This document shows, piece after piece, positions 30,605-46,684 of a stretch of DNA of 64,000 nucleotides (positions are counted from its first letter, which is position 1; each line of letters opens with the position of its first letter). The stretch lies in assembly GCA_963847705.1 (NCBI GenBank), contig CAWKBC010000030.1, forward strand, positions 480,001 to 544,000, in the 5' to 3' direction. A program made the position numbers and the translations under genes. The DNA comes from an uncultured Pseudomonadota bacterium (GTDB lineage: Bacteria > Myxococcota_A > Polyangia > Fen-1088). The notes under the pieces are model-generated. The model made no database searches. It saw nothing but the letters and a program-made list of their open reading frames with translations, and was not told the DNA's origin.

Positions 30605-30755
30605 AGCTCGCGCTCGCCTGGCAGAGCTACCCGACCTGATTCCCCCGGGCCCGTCGAAACCAGAACCGCCCACCAGCATCTGACATGTGGCGCCGCGGAG
30701 GCACCGCTCGGGGTGGCCACCACGGCCGCCCGCTGTGGTCTCCGGCCGCCGGAGC

Positions 30756-31031
30756 ATGAATCAAATGAGCACGTCCAGGGTGTTGGTCTATTCCACGACG
30801 TATTGCGGCTTCTGCCGCCGGGCGGAGGATCTCCTCCGGCGCGAGGGCATCGCTTTCGAGGCCATCGACGTCACGGATGATGTGCATGCCCGCGCCGAGT
30901 TGGTCGAGCGCGCTGGCGGCCGGCGGACCGTCCCCGTGATCTTCGTCGACGGGCAGGCCATCGGCGGGTACCAGGAGCTGGCGGCCATGGTCCGGGGCGG
31001 CGGGCTGAAGCACCTCTCGGCCGCGGCCTGA
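30756..31031 (+). CDS. grxC: Glutaredoxin (GrxC-like)
   Basis: CGFC active site, TVPVIF, IGGY. Confidence 0.88.
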   Translation: MNQMSTSRVLVYSTTYCGFCRRAEDLLRREGIAFEAIDVTDDVHARAELVERAGGRRTVPVIFVDGQAIGGYQELAAMVRGGGLKHLSAAA

Positions 31032-31094
31032 CCTCGTTCGCGCAGTTGCGGGGGCAGGCCCGACCGTCGAGCGGGAACCGATCGGGCGTCTTGC

Positions 31095-32420
31095 TCAGCT
31101 CGCCGCGGGTGGCTCCTCGATGTAGAGCTTCCGTCGCTCGACATCGTGGTCGAACAGGTCCGCGTAGCGGCCCCAGGCGACCAGGGTCTGAAACACCCGA
31201 TCGGTGTTTTCGTAGGGGAGATGGAGCGCGATCGAGCCGAGGACGACGTCCTCGTCGAGCTCTTGCCGCTCCGCCTTCCTGATCTGCTCCAGCACGTCCC
31301 GGAACAGCCGGAGCTCGACGACCTGGCGCTGGAAGAGCTGCTTGCGCTCCGGCGCGCCGCCCGCCAGAAATTGACGGCCCACCGGGGTGAGGTCGACGTC
31401 CTGGCGAGGCGTGTCGACCAGGTCCAAGAGCTCGCCGGCCTTCACCACCGAGAGAACCTTCCCGAACTCCCAGCCCAGATCGTCGACCAGCGAGAACACG
31501 TTCTCCCGCCCGCCGCGGTCGTCGAGCATCTCCAGGAGGCCGGAGATCTCGCTCGGGCCCGCGTCGGGGAGAGGCTCCCAGATCGGGGTCCGCGGCGGCG
31601 CCTTGGCCCCTGCATGCGCCGGAGCGCTCGCCGGCGCATCCGGGATCTCGGCCTCGGTGATGACGCCGTGGATCTCATCGACGAGCCGCTGAAACGCCGG
31701 CGCGCGGTAGTCGCGCGGGTAGGGGAGCTTGTTCTCGAAGATCCGACGCACGCGTCCTGGTCGCGCCGCCATGACGACGATCCGGGTCGCCATGAAGACG
31801 ACCTCCTTGACGTCGTGGCTCACCATGAAGATCGTCTTCGGGTTGGAGGCGTGATCGCTCCAGAATCGGACCACCTCGCTGCGCAGGTTCTCCGCGGTCA
31901 GCGCGTCGACCTGGCTGAAGGGCTCGTCCATGCACAGGATCTCCGGCTCGACGGCCAGCGCCCGGGCGATCCCCACCCGCTGCTTCATTCCGCCGGAGAG
32001 CTCGCGCGGGTAGGCGTCCTCGAAGCCCTCGAGGCCCACCAGGCGGATGACCCGCTCGCTGGTGGAGCCGCACCTCGTCGAGTCGTTGCCCCGCGCCGCC
32101 AGCGGCTCGACGATGTTCTGGCGCACCGTCAACCAGGGGTAGAGCGCGAAGCTCTGAAAGACGATGGCCACGCCGGGATTGAGGCCGGCCAGCGCCTGCC
32201 CGCGATACTTCACCCCGCCGCCGACGGGTTGAATCAGGCCGGCCAGGATGCGCATCAGCGTCGATTTGCCGCAGCCGGACGGCCCCAGGATCGCCAGGAT
32301 CTCCTCCTCCCGGACGTCGAGAGACACATCGTCGAGGACCCTGACCTCGGCCCCGCTCGGCAGCAGGAAGGTCTTGGTGACTCCGCTCAGCTCGCAAAGC
32401 ACAGGCGATGAATCGGACAC
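31095..32420 (-). CDS. NitT/TauT-type ABC ATP-binding protein with C-terminal extension
   Basis: RBS AGGAG; GPSGCGKS, LSGGMKQR, MDEPF, SH; C-terminal extension ending WGRYADLF. Confidence 0.9.
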   Translation of the reverse strand: MSDSSPVLCELSGVTKTFLLPSGAEVRVLDDVSLDVREEEILAILGPSGCGKSTLMRILAGLIQPVGGGVKYRGQALAGLNPGVAIVFQSFALYPWLTVRQNIVEPLAARGNDSTRCGSTSERVIRLVGLEGFEDAYPRELSGGMKQRVGIARALAVEPEILCMDEPFSQVDALTAENLRSEVVRFWSDHASNPKTIFMVSHDVKEVVFMATRIVVMAARPGRVRRIFENKLPYPRDYRAPAFQRLVDEIHGVITEAEIPDAPASAPAHAGAKAPPRTPIWEPLPDAGPSEISGLLEMLDDRGGRENVFSLVDDLGWEFGKVLSVVKAGELLDLVDTPRQDVDLTPVGRQFLAGGAPERKQLFQRQVVELRLFRDVLEQIRKAERQELDEDVVLGSIALHLPYENTDRVFQTLVAWGRYADLFDHDVERRKLYIEEPPAAS

Positions 32421-32428
32421 GACAGCTC

Positions 32429-34192
32429 CTATCTCGACAGCGCGTAGCGCCGTTCGGCGAGTTGGTAGAGACGCTTCCAGAACAGCCGATTGACCGTCAC
32501 CACGGTGGCGGCCATGGTGAGGACCCCCGCGGTGAGGACCGGGAAGTCCCCGTGGGCCGCCGAGACGCTGATGAGCGAGCCCAGCCCCGGCGTCATCCGG
32601 ATGGTGCCGGAGGCCTGGATGAACTCCGCCACGATGCTGGCGTTCCAGGCGCCGCCCGCGGCCGTCACCCACCCCGTGACGAGCTGGGGAAAGATCCCGG
32701 GCAGATAGAGGCGGCGCCATCGCTGGGCCCGACTGAATCGATAGACCCGCGCGGCCTCCTGCAGCTCGTTGGGGATCGACATCGCGCCGGCGATGACGTT
32801 GAAGAGGATGTACCACTGGGTGCCCAGCATCATCAGCACCACCGAGCCGACGCCGAGCGGGAGCGCCGCCGAGGCCATGACCGCCAGGACCAGCGGAAAC
32901 AGCATCGGCGCCGGGAACGAGGCGGCGATCTGGACCAGCGGCTGGAGGACCCCGGCCGCGCGCGGGTGCGTGCCGATGTAGACGCCCGCCGGGATGGCCC
33001 AGAGGGATCCCAGGATCACGGCGGCAGAGGTGCGCAGAAACGTGAAGGCCGTGTCCCGGCCGATCTCGCGCCAGGCAGCGCCATGAACCTTGGCCAGCAG
33101 GAGGGCGAGCTTGACGGTCCCCCAGATCGAAGCCGCCGCCAGCGCGGCCAGAACCGCGAGCACCAGCGTGAAGACGATGACGCTGCGGCCGCGCGGCCCC
33201 AGCCTCTCCAGCACGGGCTCGCGCCGGCGGGCCGCCTGCCTCGCTTCTCCCTCCCGCTGGCGCCGCTCGAAGAAGCGCTGGACCGCCGCATAGAGCTGGC
33301 TCCGCCGCAGCAGCTTCAGGACCCAGGAGGTGTTCACCGACGCGCCCCCCACGTCCTCGAGCTTGAAGCGCTCGGCCCAGGCGACCAGCGGACGCCAGAA
33401 CAGCTGGTCGACGACCACGATCATCACCGTCATCGCCACCACCGCGGCGACCATGGCGCCGCGATCACCGCGGTCGATGGCCACGCTCATGTAGGCGCCG
33501 ACGCCAGGAAGGCGGAAGTCGTGGTCCCCCAGGCGAAAGGCCTCATTGATGGTCAGGAAGAACCACCCGCCGGCCATGCTCATCATTCCGTTCCAGACCA
33601 GGCCCACGGTCGACGACGGCAGCTCGATGCGCCTGAATCGGCGCCACCAGCCGAAGCGGTAGATGCGGCCCGCCTCCATCAGGTCCTCCGGGATGGCCCG
33701 CAGCGAGTGATAGAAGCTGAAGGTCATGTTCCAGACCTGGGCGGTGAAGATCATCAGGATCGCCGCCAGCTCGAGGCCGGTGTTGGTGTGGGGGAAGAGC
33801 GTGGCCAGCGCCAGCACGATCCCGGGCATGAATCCCAGAACCGGGATGCTCTGCAGAATGTCGATCAGCGGCAGCATCACGCGATCGGCGTGGCGGACCC
33901 GGGCGGCCACGTATCCGTAGACGAGCGTGAAGAGCAGCGAGACGGCGAACGCAATCATCCCGCGGCAGAGCGAGAAGAAGGTGTAGAGGGGGAGGGTGCG
34001 CAGCTTGAGGCTGATGTCCACCTGTGCCCGCAGCGGCGCGTGCCACTCGACCCCGACCTTCGCCACGCCGTAGAGCGCCAGACCGAGGAGCAGCAGCGCG
34101 GCCAGGTCAGGCCACCCCGTGCGCCAGCGGATCGCGCGCGTGAGCGCGATGATCCTCGGTTGCGCGCGTTCGGTTCCGGCAGAGGCCGTCAT
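32429..34192 (-). CDS. ABC transporter permease with two fused TM domains (NitT/TauT type)
   Basis: DILQSIPVLGF; two EAA-like loops (EAGRIYRF, EAARVYRF). Confidence 0.9.
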   Translation of the reverse strand: MTASAGTERAQPRIIALTRAIRWRTGWPDLAALLLLGLALYGVAKVGVEWHAPLRAQVDISLKLRTLPLYTFFSLCRGMIAFAVSLLFTLVYGYVAARVRHADRVMLPLIDILQSIPVLGFMPGIVLALATLFPHTNTGLELAAILMIFTAQVWNMTFSFYHSLRAIPEDLMEAGRIYRFGWWRRFRRIELPSSTVGLVWNGMMSMAGGWFFLTINEAFRLGDHDFRLPGVGAYMSVAIDRGDRGAMVAAVVAMTVMIVVVDQLFWRPLVAWAERFKLEDVGGASVNTSWVLKLLRRSQLYAAVQRFFERRQREGEARQAARRREPVLERLGPRGRSVIVFTLVLAVLAALAAASIWGTVKLALLLAKVHGAAWREIGRDTAFTFLRTSAAVILGSLWAIPAGVYIGTHPRAAGVLQPLVQIAASFPAPMLFPLVLAVMASAALPLGVGSVVLMMLGTQWYILFNVIAGAMSIPNELQEAARVYRFSRAQRWRRLYLPGIFPQLVTGWVTAAGGAWNASIVAEFIQASGTIRMTPGLGSLISVSAAHGDFPVLTAGVLTMAATVVTVNRLFWKRLYQLAERRYALSR

Positions 34193-34362
34193 CGGGCCAG
34201 ACCTTAGCAACACGCCCTTCTCGCTGGCCGGTCGATTCTCAGAATATGGCGGGGGACCTTTCGCGATCCAGGTCACGGACCTCCAGGTCAACGTCGGATA
34301 TCGGATCGACGTGACTGAAAAGTCACGCGCCCGGGAACAGCCAGGAGATACCCTCCGGCGCC

Positions 34363-35481
34363 ATGGCGAGAAAAAATCTGTGGGGATTTTGTGGTGTGAC
34401 GGCCCTGGCCCTGGTCGCTCCGGCCGCACAGGCGGATCCGATTCGCTACGGGTATGTGGCGCTCGATCAGGTGCCGCTCCCCGCGCCCTATACGTCTTTC
34501 TCGCCGGCGGCGATCGTCGACGGCCGGGTGTACGGGACGGTCTTCGACGACACATACACCATCGCCAGCGTCGCCGTGTACAGCCGCGGAGCCATCACGA
34601 TCGGTCCTCCGGGAATTGCGACCGTCGCCAACGCCCGCGGGTCGATCGGCGGGCAGAGCACGTCCGGGCAGGCGGCCCTCTTCGAGCGGGGCGCGACCAC
34701 CCTCGTCCCGGCGCTGCCGGCACAGGCCTTCGCCAACGTGGTCTCGCTGGGCGACGACGAGCTCGCGCTCATCCAGTCGACGGACAGCTCCTTCACCAAT
34801 TCGTTCGCCTATTTTCGCGGGGGAAACGAATCGGTCATCGACTTCGGTCTGCCCGATCCGGCCGCCAACGCCTTCATGAACGGCGCCGGTGTGATTGGCC
34901 TGACCAAGAACCAGAGCCCGACGGACCATTTCGACCACGGGTACCGCTACGACCCGCGCACGCAGACGAGCACGCTCTTGCCCCCCTCGCCGGACCCCAC
35001 CGACGTCAACGTCCTCATCCAGGGGATCAACGCCGGGGGAGACGTTCTCGGCTACTCGTTCACGGACTTCGCCAGCCCCGACTACCACGAGCGGGTGGGG
35101 ATCTGGGACCGTCGCGGGGTCTTCCAGACCTACTTCTTCGAGACGCTGAACACGAGCACGCTGGTCTTCAACGATCGGGACGAAATCGTCATCACCAACA
35201 GCTCCGACGGGAACAGCTATCTCGTGCCCACCCCGGGGACGCGCCTCGATCTGGCCAGCCTCACCGCGAACGTCCCGGCCGGGCTCCAGCTCTCGCTGGT
35301 CGTCTCCCTCGACAACGGGGGGAACATCACCGGCTTCGCCGTCGACGAGAGCTTCGACTTCTTCCCCTTCCTGCTCGTCCCGCTCGGACACGGCGACCCG
35401 GATCCGGGCCCGGTCCACGTCCGGTGCGCGGTGCCGGCCTCGATCGCGCACGCCTCCGACCGGACGCACCCCCACAAGTAA
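34363..35481 (+). CDS. Secreted beta-propeller-like protein
   Basis: RBS AGGAG; signal ending AQA; repeated N-x-x-G blade motifs (ANARGSI, MNGAGVI, INAGGDV, DNGGNI). Confidence 0.7.
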   Translation: MARKNLWGFCGVTALALVAPAAQADPIRYGYVALDQVPLPAPYTSFSPAAIVDGRVYGTVFDDTYTIASVAVYSRGAITIGPPGIATVANARGSIGGQSTSGQAALFERGATTLVPALPAQAFANVVSLGDDELALIQSTDSSFTNSFAYFRGGNESVIDFGLPDPAANAFMNGAGVIGLTKNQSPTDHFDHGYRYDPRTQTSTLLPPSPDPTDVNVLIQGINAGGDVLGYSFTDFASPDYHERVGIWDRRGVFQTYFFETLNTSTLVFNDRDEIVITNSSDGNSYLVPTPGTRLDLASLTANVPAGLQLSLVVSLDNGGNITGFAVDESFDFFPFLLVPLGHGDPDPGPVHVRCAVPASIAHASDRTHPHK

Positions 35482-35578
35482 CGGGGACGCCGCCCGCCGC
35501 CGTCGCCGCCCGTTCCCACCCCCCCACGTGACCGAGGTCAAGACGGACGCGCCCGGGTCCTGTTATGGTGGCGTCCGC

Positions 35579-36994
35579 ATGAGCGCACGCGCATTCGGAC
35601 TGGTTCTGCTGGGCGGCCTGTTATCGGCGACCCTTCCCAGCACCGCGGTCGCCAAGAAGTACACGCTCGACGAGCTGCTGGAGCTGGCACGCACGCAGAA
35701 TCCGGGGCTGCGCGCGGGCGACGCCGCGACGCGCGCCATGCGGGCGCAGGTGCGGGAGGCCAAGCGCAACTGGTACCCGCAGGGGGACCTGACCTCGTTC
35801 GTCGCGCCGGTGCCGCGGGTCGAGTGCGAGGGCCCGGGCCTCATGGCCTACCCCGCGCAGGATCAGAACATCCGCGAGCAGAATTGCGTCACCACCAACG
35901 CCAGCCCCTCGCACGGGGCGCTGCAGTACCTGACCAACTTCGCGGGCGCCTATACGCGAACGGACGTGAAGCTGGTCCAGCCGCTCTGGGACTTCGGCAA
36001 GATCTCGGCGGGCGTCAGCGCGGCCGAGGCCGGGGTGACGGTCACCACCGGACGCCAGGCGGGCGCCCGCGCCGACGTGGAGCTCAACGTGCGTAAGGCC
36101 TACTGGGGGCTCAAGCTGGCGCGCGAGCTGCGCTCGATGCTGGAGGAGGGGGAGGGGTACCTCGACAGCGCGCAGAAGAAGATCGACAAGCAGCTGGCCG
36201 ACGGCAGCGGCAACGCGACGGTCAGCGATCGCCTGCGCCTGCGCACGGTGCGGACCGAGATCGAGGTGCGGTTGCTCGAGGCCAAACGCCAGGAGGCGAT
36301 CGCGCTCAGTGGGCTGCGGGCGCTGCTGAACCTGGATCCGGGCGAAGATCTGGACGTGGACGACGCAGACTTCGAACCCCTCGAGGTCCCGGCCCATCCT
36401 CTGGCCTACTACGAGGAGGAGGCGCGGATGTCACGGCCCGAGGTGCGGACCCTGGAGTACGCCGTCAAGGCCAAGCGCGCGCTGGCCACCCTCGAGCACC
36501 GCAAGCTCTATCCGGATCTGGTGCTGATCGGGCAGCTCTCCTTCGCCTACGCGCCCACCATCGACGCGCCCCAGAACGCCTTCGCCAGCAACCCCTTCAA
36601 CGGGTACGGCGGCGGGATCGCGGCGGCGCTGCGCCTGCCGCTCGACTTCGGGCCCAAGCTGGCCCGTGGCGATCGCACCGGCGCCGAGGCCGACGAGATC
36701 GAGGCCCGTCGCGAGGAGATGCTGGGCGGCGTCGGCTTCGAGGTCAGCAAGGCCTTCCTCGAGCTGTCGGAGGCCCAGACGCGACTCGATGAGACCCGCA
36801 AGGGCGAGAAGGCCGGCAAGTCGTGGGTGGCGGCGGTTACGCAGAACTTCGCGCTCGGGCTGGCCGACTCGCGCGACTTTTCGGACGCGCTGCTGCAGTC
36901 GTTCAAGATGCGGACCTTCGCGCTCCAGGCGGTGTACGACCTCAACGTCTCGACGGCGACTCTCTCGCGAGCGACGGGGACCACCGTTCCCTGA
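35579..36994 (+). CDS. TolC family outer-membrane efflux protein
   Basis: TLDELLELARTQNP, QPLWDFG, RPEV, LPLDFG; helical repeats. Confidence 0.88.
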   Translation: MSARAFGLVLLGGLLSATLPSTAVAKKYTLDELLELARTQNPGLRAGDAATRAMRAQVREAKRNWYPQGDLTSFVAPVPRVECEGPGLMAYPAQDQNIREQNCVTTNASPSHGALQYLTNFAGAYTRTDVKLVQPLWDFGKISAGVSAAEAGVTVTTGRQAGARADVELNVRKAYWGLKLARELRSMLEEGEGYLDSAQKKIDKQLADGSGNATVSDRLRLRTVRTEIEVRLLEAKRQEAIALSGLRALLNLDPGEDLDVDDADFEPLEVPAHPLAYYEEEARMSRPEVRTLEYAVKAKRALATLEHRKLYPDLVLIGQLSFAYAPTIDAPQNAFASNPFNGYGGGIAAALRLPLDFGPKLARGDRTGAEADEIEARREEMLGGVGFEVSKAFLELSEAQTRLDETRKGEKAGKSWVAAVTQNFALGLADSRDFSDALLQSFKMRTFALQAVYDLNVSTATLSRATGTTVP

Positions 36995-37016
36995 GGCCGG
37001 CTCCCGCCGGCAGCGG

Positions 37017-37361
37017 TCAGGGCTCCGGACAGTCAGGTGCGCCCGACGGCAGCGCCGGAGTGGTGGTCACGACGGCGACCGCCGTGGCGCTGTCTCCGAC
37101 AGCCACCACCGGCGTGAGCTGTTTGGCGACCGTCTCGCAATTGGAAGCATCCTGCTCCGCCCTTTGTATGTTGCCCGTCTTGTAGAGAACACCGCCCTGC
37201 AATCGGTACTTGTCCGCGAGCTCCCGGTAATGGTCGGCTCGCGACTGCGCGTCCGCAGCCGTGGTCGGTTGTTCCGCCCGCGCCGCCAGCGGCGCTCCTG
37301 AGAGCAACCCTCCCAGCGCCAGCGCGGACAGCTTGGAAACCATGCTTCTGTTGGCCTTCAT
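37017..37361 (-). CDS. Small secreted hypothetical protein
   Basis: Signal peptide ending ARA; 114 aa. Confidence 0.6.
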   Translation of the reverse strand: MKANRSMVSKLSALALGGLLSGAPLAARAEQPTTAADAQSRADHYRELADKYRLQGGVLYKTGNIQRAEQDASNCETVAKQLTPVVAVGDSATAVAVVTTTPALPSGAPDCPEP

Positions 37362-37632
37362 CGCGCGCCATCCTTTCGGTGGCTGAGCCCGCATTCGATT
37401 TGCGGGCCGCCCCCCATTGCAAATCTGGCCGTCGGATCGGCGTCGGCAAGACCGCCCGCTCCGGGGCAGTCTGCAGAGCTTCAAGGGTTCAGGTCCTCCT
37501 TGGTCGTGCGCCGGGGCTGAATCCAGGCTCGCGCCGACGATCGGCGAACGCTCGTTGGACGGTCGCCGATCGGCGCGACGCGATGGAGCCGAGCGGCCAC
37601 TCTCAACCTGGGCCGGGAGCGTCGATTCTGCT

Positions 37633-38097
37633 CTACGTCAGGGGCGCGGCCGCGGCCGAGGGGGCCTGCCCGCGCCGACGGGTCACCGCCTGCGTGGCGA
37701 GCATGCCGAGCGCCATCGACGAGACCGCCACGACCGGAGCGATACGCCCCGCGCCGAGCGCCACCAAAGCAGGGCCGGGGCAATACCCGGTCAGTCCCCA
37801 GCCGATGCCGAAGATCGCCGCTCCCGCCAGCAGCTGGGCGTCGATGCGCGTCGCGCGCGGCCAACCGAAGTCGCCGCCCAGGAAGGGATGCGCGCGGCGT
37901 TTGGCGGCACGAAAGGTCCAGTACCCGACCGCGATTCCCCCGCCCATCACGAACATCAGGCTGGGATCCCAGTTCCCCAGCACGTCGAGGAACGCCTGCA
38001 CCTTGAGCGGATTGGTCATTCCGCCCAGCCCCAGCCCGAGGGCGAAGAGAAGACCGCAGAGCGCCGCGACGGCGTTCTTCTTGCTCGCGTTGCTCAC
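37633..38097 (-). CDS. YeeE/YedE family sulfur-compound transporter subunit (PmpB-like)
   Basis: GMTNPLKVQAFLD, WDPSL, GWGLTGYCPGP; GTGA overlap with the upstream gene. Confidence 0.9.
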   Translation of the reverse strand: MSNASKKNAVAALCGLLFALGLGLGGMTNPLKVQAFLDVLGNWDPSLMFVMGGGIAVGYWTFRAAKRRAHPFLGGDFGWPRATRIDAQLLAGAAIFGIGWGLTGYCPGPALVALGAGRIAPVVAVSSMALGMLATQAVTRRRGQAPSAAAAPLT

Positions 38098-38513
38098 AGC
38101 CGGCCTCGCGTCACGGCCACGGTCAGCATCCCGGTCGCGACGAAGACCAGCGTCGCCACGATGGACCGGGACGACAGACGGCTGATCCCGCAGAGCCCGT
38201 GTCCGGAGGTGCACCCGTTGCCGAGGGTGGTGCCCACGCCGACCAGGAATCCACCGACGGCCATGGTGGCGAGCCCGGTCGAGCTGCCCGGGCCGAAGAC
38301 CCCCGGCGAGCCGAGGCGCCAGAGCAGGCCGCCGACCACCAGTCCCCCCAGAAAATACAGGCGCCAAGAGAGCTCGGCGCCCCGCGCGCCAAAGCTCCGT
38401 CCGAGGATTCCCGCGATCCCCGCGATGCGCCCGTCGAAGAGGATCAGGAGCGAGATCGCGACGCCCAGCACCAACCCGCCGAGGGTCGAGCCAAGTGGTG
38501 TGAAGCCCATCAT
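38094..38513 (-). CDS. YeeE/YedE family sulfur-compound transporter subunit (PmpA-like)
   Basis: GRIAGIAG, GNGCTSGHGLCG. Confidence 0.9.
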   Translation of the reverse strand: MMGFTPLGSTLGGLVLGVAISLLILFDGRIAGIAGILGRSFGARGAELSWRLYFLGGLVVGGLLWRLGSPGVFGPGSSTGLATMAVGGFLVGVGTTLGNGCTSGHGLCGISRLSSRSIVATLVFVATGMLTVAVTRGRL

Positions 38514-38600
38514 CGATGGAGTATAGGGGCGGGACTCGAAGGCGACCCGTCGGCTGGGCCTCGAGGTGCGCCCGGAGAAACCCGCTGACCAGAAGCGGGG

Positions 38601-38915
38601 CTAATCGCGGACGAGAGGAAGGCCGGCGTTCGCCCACCCGCGGGTGCCGCCGCTGAGGTTGTAGACGTTGGTGCGGCCTTCGGCCTCCGCGACCCTCGCC
38701 GCCGTCTGGCTGCGGACGCCAGCCGCGCAGACGAAGAGGATTCCGTCGCGCGGCAAGGTGTCCTTGGGCCTGGCCCTCAGCTCACCGAGAGGGACGAGGC
38801 GAGAGCCAGGGAGGTGTCCGCTCGACCACTCTCCAGGTTCCCGCACGTCGACCACGTCGAAGTCGCCATGCGCAATCAACTCCCGAGCCTGCTCCGGACC
38901 GATGGAGTGAATCAT
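38601..38915 (-). CDS. Single-domain rhodanese (sulfurtransferase)
   Basis: VDVREPGEW, GHLPGS, active-site loop CAAGVRS, LSGGTRGW. Confidence 0.92.
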   Translation of the reverse strand: MIHSIGPEQARELIAHGDFDVVDVREPGEWSSGHLPGSRLVPLGELRARPKDTLPRDGILFVCAAGVRSQTAARVAEAEGRTNVYNLSGGTRGWANAGLPLVRD

Positions 38916-38917
38916 GT

Positions 38918-38951
38918 TGTCTACTATAACGGATGAAATGCTCGCATGCAA
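38918..38951 (-). promoter_or_regulatory. Rhodanese promoter overlapped by an 18-bp operator-like pseudo-palindrome
   Basis: Minus strand TTGCAT, 17 nt, TATAGT, 7 nt, ATG; plus strand 38918-38935 reads TGTCTACTATAACGGATG. Confidence 0.7.
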
Positions 38952-39015
38952 GACCATCCGTCGGTGCGGCCCCACGATCGCGGGCGGGCTGAGCTGGCAA
39001 GAGGGCCGGCGCGCG

Positions 39016-40912
39016 TCAGAGGCCCGGCACGCGGCCGGACTGGATGCGGAGCAGCGCGGCCACCAGCGCGTCGATGTCCTGGCAGGTGTTGTAGGGGGCC
39101 AGCGAGGCGCGGACCGTGCTCTCCAGGCCGAAGCGGCGCAGGATCGGTTGGGCGCAGTGGTGACCAGAGCGCACGGCGATCCCTTCCTGATCGAGGGCCT
39201 TGCCGACGTCCTCGGTCCGCGCACCGTCGAGGACGAACGAGAGCACGCCGGCCTTTTCGGGCGCGGTCCCGATCAGGTGAAGCCCGGGGACACGCGCCAG
39301 CTCTCCCGTCGCATACTCGAGCAGCTCGTGCTCGTAGGCGCCGATCCGCTCGCGGCCGATGGCGTTGACGTAGTCGAGCGCGGCGCCCAGGCCGACGGCG
39401 TCGGCGATGTTGCCGGTGCCCGCCTCGAACCGCAGGGGCGGCGCTTGATAGGTCGTCTTCTCGAACCGCACGTCGCTGATCATGTTCCCCCCACCTTGCC
39501 AGGGGGGCATGGCTTCCAGGACATCTGTCTTTCCGAACAGAGCCCCGATGCCGGTCGGCCCGAAGATCTTGTGGCCGGAGAAGCAGTAAAAGTCGCAGTC
39601 CAAGGCCTGGACGTCGACGGGCAGGTGCGAGACCGCCTGAGCTCCGTCGATCAAGACGCGCGCGCCATAGCGATGGGCGATCTCGATCATCTGCTTGACC
39701 GGAACGATGGTCCCGAGCGCGTTCGAGACCTGCGAGACCGAGACCAGCCGCGTGCGCGGCCCCAGCAGCTTCTCGTACTCCTCGAGAATGACCTGGCCCC
39801 GATCGTCGACCGGCGCCACCCGCAGGCGCGCGCCCGTCGCGGCGGTGAGCTGCTGCCAGGGGACGATGTTGGCGTGGTGCTCGAGCCAGGAGATCACGAT
39901 CTCGTCCCCTTCGGCGACGTGGCGACGGCCCCAGCTCTGGGCCACGAGGTTGATCGCCTCCGTCGTTCCGCGCACGAAGACGATGTTCTTGGACGAAGGG
40001 GCGTTCAAGAAGCGTGCGGTCTTGTCCCGCGCAGACTCGTAGGCGTCGGTGGCGCGGGCCGCCAGCTCGTGCGCCGCGCGATGGACGTTGGAGTTCTCGT
40101 GCTCATAGAAGTACGAGAGGCGTTCGATGACCGCGCGCGGTTTCTGCGTGGTGGCCGCGTTGTCCAGCCAGACCAGCCGCCGCCCGTGGACGCGCTCCTC
40201 CAGGATGGGGAAGTCGCGCTTGATGCTGAGGGGATTGAAGAATCCCGCCGGCGGCGGGGAGATCGGGGACCAGCTCGGGCTGGAACTCGCTGACGAGCGA
40301 GAGCCCAGGCGAGAGCTCCGGCGCCGTGGCCGGAACGGCGGTCGCGGGCACCGGCGTGGCGGGCGAAGCCGGGAACGCGGGCGACGTCGGGAACGCAGGC
40401 GCGGTGGACCACCCGGGCAAGGCGAGCGGTGCGGTCGACAGCGGCGAGGCGGGCGTCGCGGGCAGCGAGGGTGTCGCCGGCGAACCCGGCAGGGAAGGCG
40501 AACCCGGCAGGGGGGGCGAACCCGACGACGCAGGCGTAGCCGACGACGCAGGCGAACCCGGCAACGCAGGCGAACCCCACGACGCCGGCGAACCCGACGA
40601 TGCAGGTGACGGGTGCCCCGCGATCTGGAGAAAATATGGCGTCGGTGACGCCGCGGCGGGCGGCGTCTCGACCAGTGCCAGGGGCGCCGACCCCCCCAGG
40701 AAGTTGGCCATCGTCAACGGGAGCGTGCGAAGGTCGCTCTCGGTGGGCGGCGGGGCGACCGCCCAGAGGGGCGGCGTCGTTGCGGCGCCCGGCACCGGCG
40801 GCAGATGCCCCGCCGACCCGGGGGCCTGCGCAAACAGCTCCCCCGCCAGCCGGGTGATGGCAGCGGTCAGGTCGCCTTCCGGCAATCTGGCCGGTGGATC
40901 ACTTGTACTCAT
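39016..40912 (-). CDS. Family 2A encapsulin cargo cysteine desulfurase (SufS-like), interrupted by a +1 frameshift near 40240-40262
   Basis: N-terminal disordered region with ITRLAGELF and YFL; the shifted frame reads RDFPIL, WLDNAATTQKP, EHHAN, FSGHK (PLP Lys), RSGHHCA (catalytic Cys). Confidence 0.9.
40479..40604. repeat. Seven tandem 18-bp units encoding SPAxxG-like hexapeptides
   Basis: Units like ggcgaacccgacgacgca start at 40479, 40497, 40515, 40533, 40551, 40569 and 40587. Confidence 0.85.
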
Positions 40913-41855
40913 GGTAGCTGCCGACCTCGACGTCTTCGAGCACGCCGAGCGCGTCGTCCGTCAGGACCGCCGCCGAGCAGTAGAGCGACACCAGGTAAGA
41001 GGCCGCCCCCTTCTGGTCGATGCCCCGCAGGCGAACCGACAGGCTGGGGCTCACCTCTCCCGGCAGCCCGGGCTGGAACAGCCCGACGACGCCGCGTTTC
41101 TTCTCACCGGTCCGGAGCAGGAGGATGCTGGTGGTCCCGCGGCCGTCCTTCTTGCCAGCGGCGCCGGCGTGCCCCGTGATGCCGACCTTGTCCGAGGGGA
41201 TGATGGGGATTCCACGCCAGGTGATGAAGGGCGAGCCGAACAGCGACACCGTCGCCGGCGGAACGCCGCGACGGGTGCACTCCCGCCCGAACGCCGCGAT
41301 GGCCCTGGGGTGGGCCAGGAAGAACGCCGGCTCCTTCCAGACGCGGGTGATCAACTCGTCGAGATCATCCGGCGTCGGCGCACCGGCCCGCGTCGCCACC
41401 CGCGACGCCTTGCTGGCGTTGCTCAGCAGACCGTAGTTCGCGTTGTTGACCAGCTCGTGCTCCTGCCGCTCCTTCAACATCTCGATGAGGACGCCGAGCT
41501 GTTCGCGCACCTGGTCCATCGGGCTGCGATAGAGATCGGAGATCCGCGTCTGCACGTCGATGGTGGTGGTGACCGTGCTGAGCGTGTACTCGCGCGGCTG
41601 CTCTTCGTAGTCGATGAAGGCCGTCGGCAGCTCGTCGCCATCACCGGGACTGCAGGCCAGCGCGATCCCCGAGTCGGTCGCCTCTTTGACCTTGTTCACC
41701 CGGTAGGTGCCGGACTCGACCGGCACCCAGGGGAGAAGATTGACCAGCCACCGCGGCGTGACACCGATCCACTGGGGCGGTGTCTTGGTCGTGTTGGCGA
41801 GGTTGCGGGCGGCGGTTGCGCCCAGGGTGGGGTGAGATCTGTTGGCGTCGGGCAT
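40899..41855 (-). CDS. Family 2A encapsulin shell protein (SrpI / major membrane protein I type)
   Basis: AARNLANTTKTPPQ, TPRWLVNLLPWVPVESGTYRVN, GAPTPDDLDEL, YLVSLYCSAAVL; 318 aa with no cNMP insertion; stop overlaps the desulfurase start. Confidence 0.95.
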   Translation of the reverse strand: MPDANRSHPTLGATAARNLANTTKTPPQWIGVTPRWLVNLLPWVPVESGTYRVNKVKEATDSGIALACSPGDGDELPTAFIDYEEQPREYTLSTVTTTIDVQTRISDLYRSPMDQVREQLGVLIEMLKERQEHELVNNANYGLLSNASKASRVATRAGAPTPDDLDELITRVWKEPAFFLAHPRAIAAFGRECTRRGVPPATVSLFGSPFITWRGIPIIPSDKVGITGHAGAAGKKDGRGTTSILLLRTGEKKRGVVGLFQPGLPGEVSPSLSVRLRGIDQKGAASYLVSLYCSAAVLTDDALGVLEDVEVGSYHEYK

Positions 41856-42017
41856 GTCCGTCTCTTTCTGTAATCTGATCCGTGATGCGCTGGGGCGAAG
41901 CTATCGGCGCGGCGGTCGGGGGTACAAGATCCAGTTGTTGGCCGGGGCGACCCCCCAGGCTTTCTCTCCGTCAACGCGGAGCGACTTCCGCAATCGTGGA
42001 AGTGGGGGTGGAGAGGG

Positions 42018-42629
42018 TCACCTGGCGCCCTCGACGTAGGTCATCACCAGATACATCACGGCCTCGGCAGCGCCGGGATTCCGATAGCGGTGGGGCACGT
42101 CGGCGCTGAACAGGATCGCGTCTCCGACCTCCAGGCGGTGAGCGACGTTGTCGACTTCGATCTCGACGGCGCCGGCCGTCACCACCAGGTTCTCGGTCGT
42201 TCCGGGGGGGTGAGGGGGCGCTTGCTCTTCGCCCGCGGACTTGAGCCGCAGCTCGTAGAACTCCGTCCGGTTGCGGCGTTCGTCGAAGGGAAACAGGGCG
42301 CGGGAGGTGAAGGTCCCGTCTTGATTGGACAGCAACTTCCCGGAGCGCGCAGGCAAGACGATCGCAGCGCTGTTGGTCCGATCGATGAGACTGGAGAAGG
42401 GGACCTCCAGTGCCCGTGCGACCTTCCAGAGGACGTTGATGGTCGGCGCGCTCTGACCGAGCTCGACCTGGCTCAGCATCGCCCGGCTCACCCCGGAGCG
42501 GCGTGCCAGTCTTTCCAGCGACAGGCCCCGTTTGCTGCGCAATCTCCGGAGGTTCGGACCGAGGGCCGGCAGAACCTCGTCGGCAGGTCTCGACTCCAAG
42601 GCGCCGCCCCCCTTCGTCCGCTGTGGCAT
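42018..42629 (-). CDS. XRE-family HTH-cupin transcriptional regulator (SutR/PuuR-like)
   Basis: LSLERLARRSGVSRAMLSQVE...PTINVLWK; cupin HPPGTTE...DVPHRY. Confidence 0.92.
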   Translation of the reverse strand: MPQRTKGGGALESRPADEVLPALGPNLRRLRSKRGLSLERLARRSGVSRAMLSQVELGQSAPTINVLWKVARALEVPFSSLIDRTNSAAIVLPARSGKLLSNQDGTFTSRALFPFDERRNRTEFYELRLKSAGEEQAPPHPPGTTENLVVTAGAVEIEVDNVAHRLEVGDAILFSADVPHRYRNPGAAEAVMYLVMTYVEGAR

Positions 42630-42632
42630 TAA

Positions 42633-42666
42633 AACGGACTATTGTCCGTTATGATGGACGAGTCAA
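42633..42666 (-). promoter_or_regulatory. Promoter of the first regulator, with an operator-like site in the -35/-10 spacer
   Basis: Minus strand TTGACT, 17 nt, AATAGT; plus 42643-42660 reads TGTCCGTTATGATGGACG; extra inverted repeat AACGGAC-TATT-GTCCGTT at 42633-42650. Confidence 0.65.
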
Positions 42667-42700
42667 GCGCGCTGTGCGCGTCCGCGGCCCAGACCGATCG

Positions 42701-43321
42701 CTACCGTCCGTAGACGATGACGTTGTGGTAACGGGCCTCCGAGCCGCCGGAGTTCTCGTAGACGTGGGGCTTGTTGGCGTCGAACACCACCGAGTCTCCG
42801 GGGCCCAGCTCGTCGCTGTGATCTCCGACGGTCATTCGCATCGACCCGCTCAGCACCACCACGATCTCGCGTGTTCCCGGCCCGTGCGGCTCGGAGACGT
42901 GGCGCGCGCGGGCGGCCAGCCGGAGCTCGTACATCTCGATCTGGGGGATTCCCGAGGCGGGCATGAGCGGTCGGCTGTCGAACTTCCCGTCGAGCGACCG
43001 CAGAAGCTGGGCCTCTCCGCGTCTCAGGACCGACAGTCCCGTGCGCGCCTCGCCGATCAGGTCGGAGAACGTGACGCCCAGGCCGGAGGCGATCTTCCAG
43101 AGCACCCCGATCGTCGGATTGGTCTTCCGCGTCTCGATCTGGGAAAGGGCCGCCCGGCTGACGCCGGTGAGCTGCGCCAGCTGGTCGAGGGACATCTCGC
43201 GGCGCTTCCGCTGCTCGCGCAGGTGATCCGCGACGCGACCGGCCAGCTCCGCGGCCCCGATCTCGTCGCCCGAGGGGATGGGCGCACCTCGAAGACCAGC
43301 CGCCGCCTTTTTCCTGGGCAT
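42701..43321 (-). CDS. Second XRE-family HTH-cupin transcriptional regulator
   Basis: SLDQLAQLTGVSRAALSQIE...PTIGVLWK; HGPGTRE...NKPHVY. Confidence 0.92.
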   Translation of the reverse strand: MPRKKAAAGLRGAPIPSGDEIGAAELAGRVADHLREQRKRREMSLDQLAQLTGVSRAALSQIETRKTNPTIGVLWKIASGLGVTFSDLIGEARTGLSVLRRGEAQLLRSLDGKFDSRPLMPASGIPQIEMYELRLAARARHVSEPHGPGTREIVVVLSGSMRMTVGDHSDELGPGDSVVFDANKPHVYENSGGSEARYHNVIVYGR

Positions 43322-43447
43322 GGCGGGACGGTATCACGCGATGGCCTGGTCCAATATGGGCAGGGATGTCCGCGGCCCAAGGGAGAGGGCTCCAGGGACT
43401 CCTGCGGGGCAGCGGCCCGGCCCGGCCCGTCTCGCGTTGTAAACTGA

Positions 43448-43465
43448 AGTCCCGTATAGTAGACA
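43448..43465 (+). promoter_or_regulatory. Operator-like site overlapping the -10 box of the serine acetyltransferase gene
   Basis: AGTCCCGTATAGTAGACA is directly followed by the ATG at 43466. Confidence 0.7.
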
Positions 43466-44425
43466 ATGGCCACCATGCTGCGCACAGCCGATTCGCAGGC
43501 CGCCGCGTTCGACTCTTTTGCGGACGTCGTCGATGACATCTGCGCCGCCAACGAAGATCTCCTGCGCGGCCGTCGCAAGCAGCGGGGACGTCACGCGCTG
43601 CCCTCCCGGGCCGCTGTGGCCGCGGTGGTCGACGATCTGCGGTCGGTGCTGTTTCCCGGGCACTTCGGCGCGACCGACCTGGCGCCGACCAGCATCCGCT
43701 ACTACGTGGGCGCGCAGCTCGACAAATTGCAGGTCGCGCTCACCGAGCAGGTGCGCCGCGGGCTCTCCCTGGTCTGCGATCATGACGACGTCACCGGCGC
43801 GGGCGAATGCCGCCGGTGCGACCAGGAGGCCTCCGACGCCACGGAGGCTCTGGTCATTCATCTTCCGACGATCCGGAGAATGCTGGAGACCGACCTCAAG
43901 GCGGCGTTCGCCAGCGATCCCGCGGCCACCTTCCTGGACGAGACGCTCTATTGCTACCCGGGGGTCCTGGCGATCACGCAGCACCGGATCGCGCACGAGC
44001 TCTACAGTCTCTCGGTCCCCCTGATCCCGCGCATCATCTCCGAGCTGGCGCACGCGGCCACCGGGATCGACATTCACCCGGGCGCCAAGATCGGACCGTA
44101 CTTCTTCATCGATCACGGGACCGGGGTGGTCATCGGCGAGACCTGCGAGATCGGCGCGCGGGTTCGCCTCTATCAGGGGGTGACCTTGGGCGCGCGCGGA
44201 TTTCCGATCGATCCGGACGGTCAACTGTTCAAGGGCCCGCGACACCCGATCATCGGGGACGACGTCGTCGTCTACGCGGGCGCCACGGTGCTTGGCCGCG
44301 TGACGATCGGGGAGGGTGCCGTCATCGGGGGGAACGTCTGGCTCACCCGGGACGTGCCGCCCGGCGGCCGCGTCACCCAGGCCCGCCTTCAGCAGGACAC
44401 CTTCGAGGGCGGCTCGGGGATCTAG
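43466..44425 (+). CDS. cysE: Serine O-acetyltransferase (CysE/EpsC/SrpH type)
   Basis: DPAA, YPG, TGIDIHPGA, FIDHGTGVVIGET, YQGVTLG, RHP. Confidence 0.93.
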   Translation: MATMLRTADSQAAAFDSFADVVDDICAANEDLLRGRRKQRGRHALPSRAAVAAVVDDLRSVLFPGHFGATDLAPTSIRYYVGAQLDKLQVALTEQVRRGLSLVCDHDDVTGAGECRRCDQEASDATEALVIHLPTIRRMLETDLKAAFASDPAATFLDETLYCYPGVLAITQHRIAHELYSLSVPLIPRIISELAHAATGIDIHPGAKIGPYFFIDHGTGVVIGETCEIGARVRLYQGVTLGARGFPIDPDGQLFKGPRHPIIGDDVVVYAGATVLGRVTIGEGAVIGGNVWLTRDVPPGGRVTQARLQQDTFEGGSGI

Positions 44426-44443
44426 CCTCTTGCGCCGGCACCG

Positions 44444-44463
44444 CTGTCTAGTATAGTAGACAG
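44444..44463 (+). promoter_or_regulatory. Near-perfect 20-bp palindromic operator-like site upstream of the peroxiredoxin gene
   Basis: CTGTCTAGTATAGTAGACAG; contains TATAGT, with TTGCGC 16 nt upstream of it. Confidence 0.75.
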
Positions 44464-44650
44464 TATTGTGGCTCGGAACGAGGGGAGGGCGGGGAGCCTG
44501 TTTGCAGGGAAGGGTCAGGGAGGAGCGGGCCGAGCGGTGGCGGGGCGGGAGCCACCCGCGCGAGAAACGGGGCTTGCGCGGGTGGCCACGGGGCGGCAGC
44601 GCGCCGCGCGGGGATCGCGCGAACAACAACGGTAGACCCAGGAGGACAAC

Positions 44651-45289
44651 ATGGCTCTTCACATCGGAAGCATCGCGCCCGACTTCGAGCAGGATTCGAC
44701 GGAGGGAAAAATCAAGCTCCACCAGTGGCTGGGAGACAGCTGGGGCGTTCTCTTCTCCCATCCGGCCGACTTCACCCCCGTCTGCACCACCGAGCTCGGC
44801 CGGGTGGCCAAGCTGAAACCGGAGTTCGACAGGCGAAAAACCAAGGTGATCGCGCTGTCGGTCGATACGGGCGCCTCGCACAAGAACTGGATCCGCGACA
44901 TCGAGGAGACGCAGGCGACCAGGATCAACTTTCCGATCCTCGCCGACGCGGATCGCAAGGTCTCCACGCTCTACGACATGATCCATCCGGAGGCGAACGA
45001 CACCCTGACGGTGCGCTCGGTCTTCATCATCGACCCCAAGAAGAAGATCCGTCTCATCATCACCTATCCCGCCAGCACGGGCCGGAACTTCGACGAGATC
45101 CTGCGGGTCATCGATTCGCTGCAGCTCACCGAGTATCACTCGGTCGCCACCCCCGTCGACTGGAAGAACGGCGACGACGTGGTGATCGTCCCATCGCTCA
45201 AGGATCCGGACGTCCTCCGGCAGAGGTTTCCCAAGGGCTGGCGGGAGATCAAGCCGTACCTCCGCCTGACCCCGCAACCGGATCGGTAG
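44651..45289 (+). CDS. 1-Cys peroxiredoxin (Prx6 subfamily)
   Basis: RBS AGGAGG; FSHPADFTPVCTTE, YPASTGRNFDE, ATPVDW. Confidence 0.95.
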   Translation: MALHIGSIAPDFEQDSTEGKIKLHQWLGDSWGVLFSHPADFTPVCTTELGRVAKLKPEFDRRKTKVIALSVDTGASHKNWIRDIEETQATRINFPILADADRKVSTLYDMIHPEANDTLTVRSVFIIDPKKKIRLIITYPASTGRNFDEILRVIDSLQLTEYHSVATPVDWKNGDDVVIVPSLKDPDVLRQRFPKGWREIKPYLRLTPQPDR

Positions 45290-45531
45290 GGCGGCGATCC
45301 CGGTGGGTCGGGTGGTCCATCACCTCCAGCGCCGCGATCCCCCACTTTCGCTTCCCCGGCGCCGCCGCCACGCGCTCGGGCGTCATGTCGAGCTTGTGCG
45401 TGATCCAGTGGGGGGAGGTGGCGTTGTTCCGGATCGTCTGGTCGACCTCGCGCTGACGTCGACGTCGTGGGAAGCCGTCCTTCGCGTGAGCTGGTCGTGT
45501 TACTTTCCAAGCTCGTCTGGCGGAAGACCGC

Positions 45532-45765
45532 ATGGAACCACCATCGACCGAGACCGCCGATGTAGACGCGCAGTCGGAAGAGTGGTTCGCGTCCTACGCG
45601 GAGCCCTCGAACCAATCTTCGAACCGACATCGCCGCCTCCGTCACCGTCGCAGTCGCGATCCGAGGCGCCAGCGACGCGACCGGCTGATCGCGGTGCTGA
45701 TGGTCGCGTCGGTGGTGTTCGTCGGCGCGATGACGGCCTTCTTCTACGCTGTACTGGTTCGCTGA
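45532..45765 (+). CDS. Small membrane protein (acidic, Arg-rich, C-terminal TM helix)
   Basis: 77 aa with a clear hydrophobic C-terminus. Confidence 0.5.
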   Translation: MEPPSTETADVDAQSEEWFASYAEPSNQSSNRHRRLRHRRSRDPRRQRRDRLIAVLMVASVVFVGAMTAFFYAVLVR

Positions 45766-46118
45766 CGGTCGGGTTCCAGTCGGGCGCCGCCGGGCAGACG
45801 GGCACCGCGAGAATCTAGGGACCGTTCCCCCGTTTCGTCTCGACAAGCACGAGGTCAGCGTGGCGAGGTCTCGCGCGTTCATGAACGCCGCCCCAGCCTG
45901 GCAGGCCGCCGGGAACCCCGCCGAGCCAACGAGCGGCTCCGTTTTCGACTTCATCGGGTCCACCCCGGAGGCGGTTACAGCGAGAACCTGATCCACAGGC
46001 GGGTCGAACGGACGCCGGCCGAGCAGAAGCTAAGCTCACGCGGACGCCGCGCCGCTGCGGGCAGGCCATGAGCGCCGGCTTGCGCCCTTGAACATGGTCG
46101 CCATGTTCAAGTGGCGAC

Positions 46119-46445
46119 ATGGGTGGCCGCGCAATCAATGCAATTTTGGGCCTATGGCTTTTTGTTTCGTTATTCCTGTGGCCACACACCAGGGCTCAGC
46201 GCGTGACAGGGTGGACGATCGGGATGTTGGCCGTGACGGCGGCACTCGCTGGAGTGTGTGGGAGAGCTTGGGGCCGCTTGCTGAACGCAGCTCTGGGGCT
46301 ATGGTTGGTCGTCTCCGGACTTCTCGTTCCCCGGCTCGGGGTCGCCACCTTCTGGACGGACTACGTCGTGGGTTTTGGGTTGGTGTTCTTCGCCATACTG
46401 CCCAGCTGCATGACGTCTCTGCCAGATCACAGAGCCGACGCATAA
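46119..46445 (+). CDS. SPW-repeat-like membrane protein
   Basis: Two repeats: NAILGLWLFVS and NAALGLWLVVS. Confidence 0.65.
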   Translation: MGGRAINAILGLWLFVSLFLWPHTRAQRVTGWTIGMLAVTAALAGVCGRAWGRLLNAALGLWLVVSGLLVPRLGVATFWTDYVVGFGLVFFAILPSCMTSLPDHRADA

Positions 46446-46498
46446 ACGCCTCCCGGCACGATTCCTTGTCGATCAGCGTCCGCGCTCCCAAGCTTGTG

Positions 46499-46684
46499 CT
46501 AGCGATGACCGCGGCCGCCAAGGTGGTGTCGGCGGTCTCCCGAGGTCACCACACCGCCCGCAAGCAACAGGATCGCCGCCACCAGCGCCACGTTGACCAC
46601 GGGGCCGAGTCCCGGCACCCCCGAGAGTCCCAATAGCAACGTCGCAATCGCCAATAGCGCGAAACCGAATCCCCAATAGAGCAT
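46499..46684 (-). CDS. DUF1328 (YtjA)-like small membrane protein
   Basis: MLYWGFGFALLAIATLLLGLSG; purine-rich RBS. Confidence 0.65.
   Translation of the reverse strand: MLYWGFGFALLAIATLLLGLSGVPGLGPVVNVALVAAILLLAGGVVTSGDRRHHLGGRGHR

Follow-up and report, generated by a model that had tools for sequence, protein, structure and literature searches.

A predicted XRE-cupin operator joins a family 2A encapsulin operon to a putative sulfur-starvation regulon in a Polyangia-type myxobacterium

Sulfur starvation induces family 2A encapsulin operons, whose shells store sulfur (PMC10836720; PMC8049743), and a detoxification role has also been proposed for their shells (PMC10836720). In the operons of SrpI of Synechococcus elongatus (PMC8049743) and of Acinetobacter baumannii 118362 (PMC10836720), the shell gene is accompanied by those for a cysteine desulfurase with a low-complexity N-terminus, a rhodanese and a serine acetyltransferase. 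A similar gene set is found at positions 37,633–45,289 of a 64,000-nt stretch of DNA (the window) from an uncultured bacterium of the GTDB class Polyangia (GenBank assembly GCA_963847705.1, contig CAWKBC010000030.1, positions 480,001–544,000), whose genome (G000) comprises 6.1 Mb on 48 contigs and is 85% complete. The minus strand of this module carries, in order, xreB, xreA and the genes for the shell, the desulfurase, the rhodanese and the PmpA-like and PmpB-like proteins, while cysE and prx6 lie on the plus strand, divergent from xreB. In contrast to the operons above, the rhodanese gene of the window follows the desulfurase gene and has its own predicted leaderless promoter with a palindromic box, cysE is divergent, and two XRE-cupin genes and an operator are present, neither of which is named for the operon in the available portions of those papers. 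We consider it probable, from sequence comparison, that the locus combines a family 2A operon of the ordinary kind with a cysE/xreB unit, that SutR-like XRE-cupin repressors bind the shared box and that a predicted sulfur-starvation regulon includes the shell among its members. By analogy with the systems described in PMC10836720 and PMC8049743, the shell of the window would be expected to self-assemble, to load cargo and to store sulfur.

XRE-cupin regulators repress by occluding promoters, and ErfA, PsdR and PauR of Pseudomonas have palindromic operators, with a site by the regulator's own gene and over the promoter (PMC7901475). Likewise, the 16-bp palindrome GTCYRYYATANYRGAC occurs at the promoters of the rhodanese gene, xreA, cysE and prx6 (boxes 1–4 in Table 1). 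These four copies, all within the module, account for seven strand matches in the window, where 0.06 would be expected by chance. Equivalents of box 1 are positioned 2–3 nt before the start codon in many relatives, and the xreA promoter, whose spacer is filled by box 2, was the sole sigma70-like site found in the region by a promoter scan. The TATAGT hexamers that form the centers of boxes 1 and 3, located 7 and 5 nt before the ATG codons of the rhodanese gene and cysE suggest that both are transcribed from leaderless promoters. G018 and G025, neither of which yielded a shell, also have the boxed divergent cysE/xreB unit, and an equivalent of box 4 is located 188 nt before prx6 in G001 despite different upstream genes. 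Between box 4 and prx6 of the window there is a 14-bp GC-rich hairpin without a U tract (44551–44586; z score of the region, −3.15).

The shell gene itself is preceded by two tandem boxes of a variant form, which has the same geometry as the main box and conserved columns in alignment A1. The variant was found by an unseeded palindrome search of the 300 nt before the shell gene in 36 myxobacterial loci, minus the window and G001, with a score of 449 versus about 307 for three shuffles that were run with fewer starts. With the window held out, the 99th percentile of the background was 11.9, and the two boxes of the window score 13.7 and 14.9. A preliminary description of this DNA, made from its letters and open reading frames, had postulated shared control of the module but overlooked the palindrome; the predicted operator at four promoters, together with the tandem variant before the shell gene, supports that postulate.

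The box is not confined to the module. A matrix trained on 33 sites from relatives, which were picked with a seed derived from the window, identified 12 sites in G000 with scores of at least 19, followed by a gap to 15.6. The 12 sites are on four contigs and all lie outside called genes, while order-5 Markov genomes (8 runs) and shuffled intergenic DNA (10 runs) each yielded 0–1 such sites. Most of the eight strong sites outside the module flank genes for the use of sulfonates, sulfate esters, sulfate or homocysteine. Five of the eight precede a carbonic anhydrase-metY-metA cluster, ribBA-ssuE with a divergent glutathione S-transferase (GST) gene, a gene that fuses a sigma54 activator to an SsuA domain, an arylsulfotransferase gene, and ssuC-ssuB opposite a divergent SsuA-like gene. 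Two more precede genes for a DUF2325 protein (G000:C1:95035-95361) and a macro-domain protein (C30:236971-237645). The latter two genes flank xreB in G005, also with boxes, and a sulfur-related role is suggested for DUF2325 because its gene adjoins sbp in Sorangium, G034 and G036. Weaker sites are found before a further sulfonate-type operon (15.6) and between two divergent sbp genes (15.0 and 13.7). The top-scoring box of the genome is directly followed by the ATG of a 64-codon frame, which may be a leaderless small gene or RNA. Four boxes fall in an organosulfur-scavenging island (G000:C11:30001-64000) with ssuE, ssuABC-like genes, an SsuD-like monooxygenase gene, TonB-ExbBD, a D-cysteine desulfhydrase-like gene and ribBA, in which the SsuA-like gene at 36937-37308 looks truncated. 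The sigma54-SsuA fusion has 701 aa (L111:11844-13949) and may be peculiar to G000, since its homologues in the fetched loci match the activator part alone.

The targets of the CysB and CymR regulons include sulfate binding, the use of sulfonates and sulfate esters, and sulfhydrylase. The box marks the same set of targets, whereas XRE-cupins belong to a different protein family. No CysB orthologue was found: the best LysR matches have 22–25% identity in the 85% complete G000, and in five other genomes they do not exceed 31%. No box was found at the cysK, cysDN, cysUW and cysH-sir clusters of G000, two of which carry Rrf2 genes (CymR-like, under the cut-off), namely sbp-cysUW (C8:97751-102485) and cysH-sir-cysA-cysK (C45:8875-15559). 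These unboxed, Rrf2-linked clusters suggest a second tier of sulfur control. That cysteine synthases and sulfate reduction genes, such as cysK and cysH beside an Rrf2 gene, lie elsewhere and are unboxed also means that the "complete circuit" of the preliminary description, from sulfur-compound transport to encapsulated storage and redox protection, was overstated.

Comparison with related genomes showed that the strict pattern was matched in 20 of 36 genomes of the window's family, versus 1 for the reversed control, and in 4 versus 3 of 24 genomes outside the family. With one mismatch allowed, the family genomes gave 107 strand matches versus 12 for the control; the counts were 14 versus 0 in Sorangium and 5 versus 2 in Labilithrix. 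Thirty site loci from Sorangium and other genomes were examined, with 44 of their 86 called genes scanned. Among the boxed loci were those of ssuE with a sigma54 activator, an SsuA-like gene, a sulfatase gene, metY (two), TauD (two), a MoeZ-like gene, cysH with a 2-thiouracil desulfurase gene, and an arylsulfotransferase gene.

Several observations point to the XRE-cupins as the proteins that bind the box. The palindrome adjoins the regulators' own genes (boxes 2 and 3), and a box scoring at least 17 was found upstream of 11 of 40 XRE genes at non-training loci, versus 0.3% of the 4,898 genes of G000. The variant box is located upstream of eight of nine XreA-type genes outside the family, including those of a Sorangium xreA-DUF2325-sbp-cysUW cluster and a prx6-xreA unit. 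At non-myxobacterial shell loci, a variant score of at least 10 was reached in six of the seven whose neighboring XRE gene encodes an intact SRxML recognition helix, in none of the four whose helix is degenerate, and in 3 of the 39 that have no XRE neighbor. XreA and XreB also have 34–35% identity to SutR (YdcN) of Escherichia coli, which has the same HTH_3 and cupin domains, the conserved His/Glu/His set of the cupin, a similar recognition helix and a similar 16-bp palindrome beside its own gene, where matches in the ydcO-sutR gap score 19.9 and 11.0. The dominant SutR ChIP-exo peak among the rows examined is in this gap, with a signal-to-noise ratio of 1345 versus at most 20 for the other 26 of these rows (PMC8464067, Dataset S4); it covers the weaker site and adjoins the 19.9 match, the coordinates being shifted between genome versions. 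SutR differs in having one dominant site in the 27 examined ChIP-exo rows versus about 12 strong box sites per genome here, and orthology was not indicated: in a quick, unrooted tree of XRE-cupins SutR forms a long branch outside both clades, and the module contains no ydcO. The HTH_3 and cupin architecture is shared as well with 1Y9Q of Vibrio cholerae, the best Protein Data Bank match of XreB (E 8e-24), whose cupin holds D-methionine (PMC7901475).

The presence of the same box beside sulfur-scavenging genes in this soil myxobacterium and its relatives suggests that these regulators act as a sulfur-starvation switch. With sulfur in good supply, XreA and XreB dimers would cover the boxed promoters, and upon starvation they would let go, so that the shell, desulfurase, rhodanese, CysE, Prx6, MetY and the proteins for scavenging sulfonates and sulfate esters would be co-expressed. 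CysE and the boxed sulfhydrylase MetY could jointly supply cysteine or homocysteine. Given that neither regulator contains a cysteine and that both keep the cupin His/Glu/His set, the signal is likely a small molecule bound by the pocket of the cupin. Co-repression by a sulfur amino acid ranks first and has about an even chance of being correct, O-acetylserine as an inducer ranks second and is rather unlikely, and a signal delivered by the rhodanese, ranked third, is more doubtful still. XreB would be the family-wide regulator and XreA the copy travelling with the shell. Taken jointly, it may be, with odds that we judge to be balanced, that the sulfur-starvation response of Polyangia-type myxobacteria, where the search detected no CysB, is controlled by two paralogous XRE-cupin repressors, of which XreB is global, while XreA and the box travel with family 2A operons, even into Magnetospirillum, Azospirillum, Bradyrhizobium and Afipia.

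We surveyed the neighborhoods of the best 80 of at least 581 family 2A loci, a choice that leans to near relatives and includes many short contigs. Divided according to the titles of their records, the loci comprised 30 myxobacterial and 50 others. An XRE-cupin gene was found in 13 and 11 of these, a YeeE-type pair in three of the 80 (2 and 1) and prx6 in four (4 and 0). When only loci with 5 kb or more of flanking DNA on each side were counted (14 and 36), the respective numbers were 6 and 8, 1 and 1, and 2 and 0. In the fetched stretches of the 11 shell-bearing genomes of the family, a rhodanese gene was found in 11, an XRE-cupin gene in 10, a YeeE-type pair in five, cysE in four and prx6 in two, and all five accessory types occur together in G001. 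An XreA-type gene (>55% identity) is present in 10 of the 11 shell-bearing genomes versus 2 of the 25 other family genomes, while some XRE-cupin is present in 31 of the 36; as kin are not independent, these family and locus counts are descriptive. The YeeE pairs at the family's shell loci have 30–48% identity to that of the window, whose orthologues with 92–93% identity (in G003, G005 and G024) are located away from any shell.

Of 28 PmpA-like genes, 4 have a box scoring at least 17 at a distance of up to 400 nt and 8 at up to 1.4 kb, and such a box precedes 4 of 27 prx6 genes; each set includes the window locus and one site used in training. Three of the four directly boxed YeeE pairs come from genomes that yielded no shell (G002, G013 and G022), and a boxed prx6-xreA unit of G159 had no shell in the fetched stretch. 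The PmpA-like gene of the window has a predicted leaderless promoter with TATACT 7 nt before its ATG, a hexamer kept in the three close orthologues, and the gap upstream of the pair contains no box (best operator score, −8). The PmpA/PmpB pair is a looser member of the regulon, which in the window could at most be reached by transcripts that continue from the rhodanese promoter. The YeeE pair and Prx6 are recurrent regulon members and not parts of the shell system: they recur with the regulator where no shell was found, and their rarity in the survey does not sustain their description as encapsulin accessories. Nor is the "split" of the YeeE/YedE pair unusual, since two genes of about 140–150 aa that correspond to the C- and N-terminal YeeE halves, with conserved cysteine motifs as in the window, are the normal form of the PmpA/PmpB subfamily (PMC11582611). 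We regard the pair as a putative sulfur-compound transporter.

All nine genes predicted in the preliminary description, from the four core genes to the transporter pair, prx6 and the two XRE-cupin genes beside the divergent cysE, were confirmed by profile matches (Table 1). The desulfurase gene, however, is not a single open reading frame in this assembly, which that description had not noticed: an extra base at 40241 places the N-terminal cargo-loading region and the catalytic domain in different frames. A single open frame runs from the shell stop through the desulfurase in 10 of 12 relatives' loci, and the other two have other frameshifts within the same locus. Contigs of related strains from four sequencing runs also lack the extra base (one contig in X1, and one 327-nt contig in X3, X4 and X5, which belong to a single study). 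No contig of the window's own strain spanning 40241 was found among the runs, whose best DNA share was 0.17 and among which no RNA run was listed. Other frameshifts in G000 were estimated at one candidate per 72 kb or one per 125 kb, the latter with a detector that missed the desulfurase shift itself, and these rates do not decide between an error and a real lesion. The shift is probably an assembly error; a recent private lesion is less likely. A programmed frameshift was rejected because the relatives and the related contigs lack the extra base.

Table 1. Genes and predicted operator boxes of the module (positions in the window).
Feature	Position	Strand	Evidence
PmpB-like half-size YeeE/YedE membrane protein (DUF6691)	37633..38097	-	DUF6691 140 bits; Cys in GYCPGP
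PmpA-like half-size YeeE/YedE membrane protein	38094..38513	-	PF04143 positions 224-309; Cys in GCTSGH
Single-domain rhodanese	38601..38915	-	PF00581 64 bits; one Cys (Cys63)
Box 1	38919..38934		Matrix score 24.2; centred on TATAGT -10-like hexamer 7 nt before rhodanese ATG
Cargo cysteine desulfurase, frameshifted	39016..40912	-	Pro/Ala-rich N-terminal region and SufS-type PLP domain
Family 2A encapsulin shell	40899..41855	-	NF041162 486 bits vs cut-off 380; PF19307
Two tandem variant boxes, NTCCG-N6-CGGAN	41965-41982 and 41985-42002		Upstream of shell gene
XreA, XRE-cupin, encapsulin-linked type	42018..42629	-	HTH_3 and Cupin_2; no cysteine
Box 2	42644..42659		Matrix score 23.6; fills 17-nt spacer of TTGACT/AATAGT promoter-like site of xreA
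XreB, XRE-cupin, family-wide type	42701..43321	-	HTH_3 and Cupin_2; no cysteine
Box 3	43449..43464		Matrix score 22.3; xreB/cysE divergent gap; TATAGT 5 nt before cysE ATG
Serine O-acetyltransferase (CysE, EpsC type)	43466..44425	+	NF041874 156 bits, cut-off 150
Box 4	44446..44461		Matrix score 30.1; 189 nt before prx6
1-Cys peroxiredoxin (Prx6 type)	44651..45289	+	AhpC-TSA and 1-cysPrx_C; NF009668 over cut-off

The closest public shells are 72–79% identical to that of the window, in records titled Myxococcales, Polyangia or Polyangiaceae; PF19307 is its sole Pfam match and the cNMP-binding insertion is absent, which places it in family 2A. The pyridoxal phosphate (PLP) frame of the desulfurase scores 834.7 bits against NF041166 (cut-off 800) and contains the motifs SGHK, with the PLP lysine, and RSGHHCAQP, with the catalytic cysteine. 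In the PmpB-like protein, a PF04143 match (positions 56-105) is under the cut-off, and its GTG start codon overlaps the stop codon of the upstream gene. CysE scores 169 bits against TIGR01172, below the cut-off of 211. The sole cysteine of Prx6, Cys45 in PVCTTE, and the lack of a resolving cysteine identify it as a 1-Cys peroxiredoxin. G000 also contains an xreB paralogue (89% identity; G000:C25:60258-60878) with just a weak box (10.5) and a second prx6 (83%; G000:C30:248603-249241) without a box. No Rfam family exceeded its threshold within 36500-46500, a terminator scan of the region gave 5 hits versus 3.7 by chance, nothing being above chance, and a hairpin 3' of the rhodanese gene was insignificant (z −1.07). 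Upstream of the module, positions 30687-36994 of the window contain genes for a glutaredoxin, a NitT/TauT-type ABC pair, a 372-aa protein and a TolC-family protein, without a box.

A number of observations weigh against a sulfur-starvation regulon controlled by the XRE-cupins. No strong box lies upstream of 29 of these 40 XRE genes, and G002 (91% complete), G009 and G023 are boxed, yet no XRE-cupin was found there. Some boxed loci have no sulfur link (rsmG, MscS, a kinase and an amidase), and the top-scoring site of G000 follows sbp between convergent genes (G000:C1:102347-102560). The seed pattern came from the four sites of the window, so that their scores are not independent, and column-shuffled matrices were noisier than the other nulls, with 0–15 matches at a score of at least 18 (3 of 15 matrices reached at least 10). 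In a 150-genome sample of the phylum the strict pattern occurred at chance level outside G000, with 56 versus 58 matches in 14 regulator-bearing genomes, which suggests that a genome-wide regulon is limited to this family and Polyangiaceae. Characterized XRE-cupins generally act locally and on no more than one or two targets, the exception being PauR with 12 locations (PMC7901475), whereas the 12 strong sites here are spread over four contigs. If the frameshift were real, moreover, this strain would make no loadable cargo.

The box and its regulon might instead be real but bound by an Rrf2/CymR-like protein, the sigma54-SsuA activator or an alternative sigma factor, with the XRE-cupin genes as mere targets. 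An upstream box marks a gene as target and not as binder, and both the three boxed genomes without a detected XRE-cupin and the three Rrf2 genes of G000, two of them in the sulfate-uptake and cysK clusters, would fit such a binder. The stretches around those two clustered Rrf2 genes, however, contain no box (best scores, 6.0 and 3.7), the occurrence of the box in different phyla follows whether the XRE recognition helix is intact, and in E. coli matching DNA adjoins the SutR peak. A palindromic site is more in keeping with a dimeric HTH protein than with a sigma factor. Weighing these points, we regard a different binder as improbable. We think the same of the possibility that the XRE-cupins do bind the box but respond to an excess of cysteine, sulfane sulfur or oxidative stress, the regulon serving to detoxify and store. 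Prx6, GST, rhodanese and PmpA/PmpB-type proteins would suit the handling of sulfane sulfur, Pseudomonas XRE-cupins respond to pathway metabolites (PMC7901475), and the proposed detoxification role of family 2A shells (PMC10836720) agrees with this possibility, as do six myxobacterial loci whose rhodanese and XRE-cupin share a single frame free of stops (L050, L064, L079, L093, L098 and L106). Against it, the boxed genes include scavenging genes (ssuE, ssuABC-like, TauD, sulfatase and arylsulfotransferase), the Acinetobacter operon was induced by starvation and not by sulfide (PMC10836720), and neither regulator has a cysteine for persulfide sensing. The six single frames are located at the end of the shell operon, and their recognition helix is mostly altered (e.g., GRQTLGQ).

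It is very improbable that, as the preliminary description had it, the nine genes form a dedicated and conserved circuit around the encapsulin, with the YeeE pair supplying the shell and Prx6 guarding it. YeeE-type pairs in 5 and Prx6 in 2 of the 11 family shell loci and the full accessory set of G001 would be expected from such a circuit; on the other hand, the pairs at those loci are only distantly similar to that of the window, whose close orthologues are away from shells, both components are rare in the wider survey, and boxed pairs as well as the boxed prx6-xreA unit occur where no shell was found. Control of the shell, along with scavenging genes, by SutR-like repressors through the shared box remains our preferred reading.

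The core of the module, consisting of the family 2A shell, desulfurase, rhodanese and serine acetyltransferase, is known, while the operator and the regulon of a known regulator family are likely new. As to the suggestion that the accessory set may be undescribed, an HTH_3 neighbor has already been tabulated for 287 of 1273 family 2A shells (PMC8049743, supplementary file 2), the PmpA/PmpB form is known (PMC11582611), and gene tables of PMC8346489 may list XRE-cupin neighbors. YeeE and peroxiredoxin are not mentioned in the main texts of PMC10836720, PMC8346489 and PMC8049743, and "sulfur" occurs 0 times in the main text of PMC7901475 on Pseudomonas XRE-cupins. Our literature search, whose reach ended at motif figures in supplements and subscription papers, found no sulfur-starvation regulon of myxobacteria. 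It also found no regulator of desulfurase encapsulins outside cyanobacteria, and the available portion of PMC11659603 likewise names none.

If correct, these predictions would give sulfur-storage encapsulins their first named regulator and operator outside cyanobacteria, and a myxobacterial group for which the literature search found no system of sulfur control would gain one. The box also predicts sulfur roles for the DUF2325 and macro-domain genes. The operator and its candidate repressor could be tested in cultured Sorangium sp. So ce375, Labilithrix luteola, Magnetospirillum fulvum and Azospirillum lipoferum, and the ligand of the regulator would tell whether the shell serves storage or detoxification. 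A ligand-binding rather than a thiol-based sensor would then decide when the cells fill or use their sulfur store.

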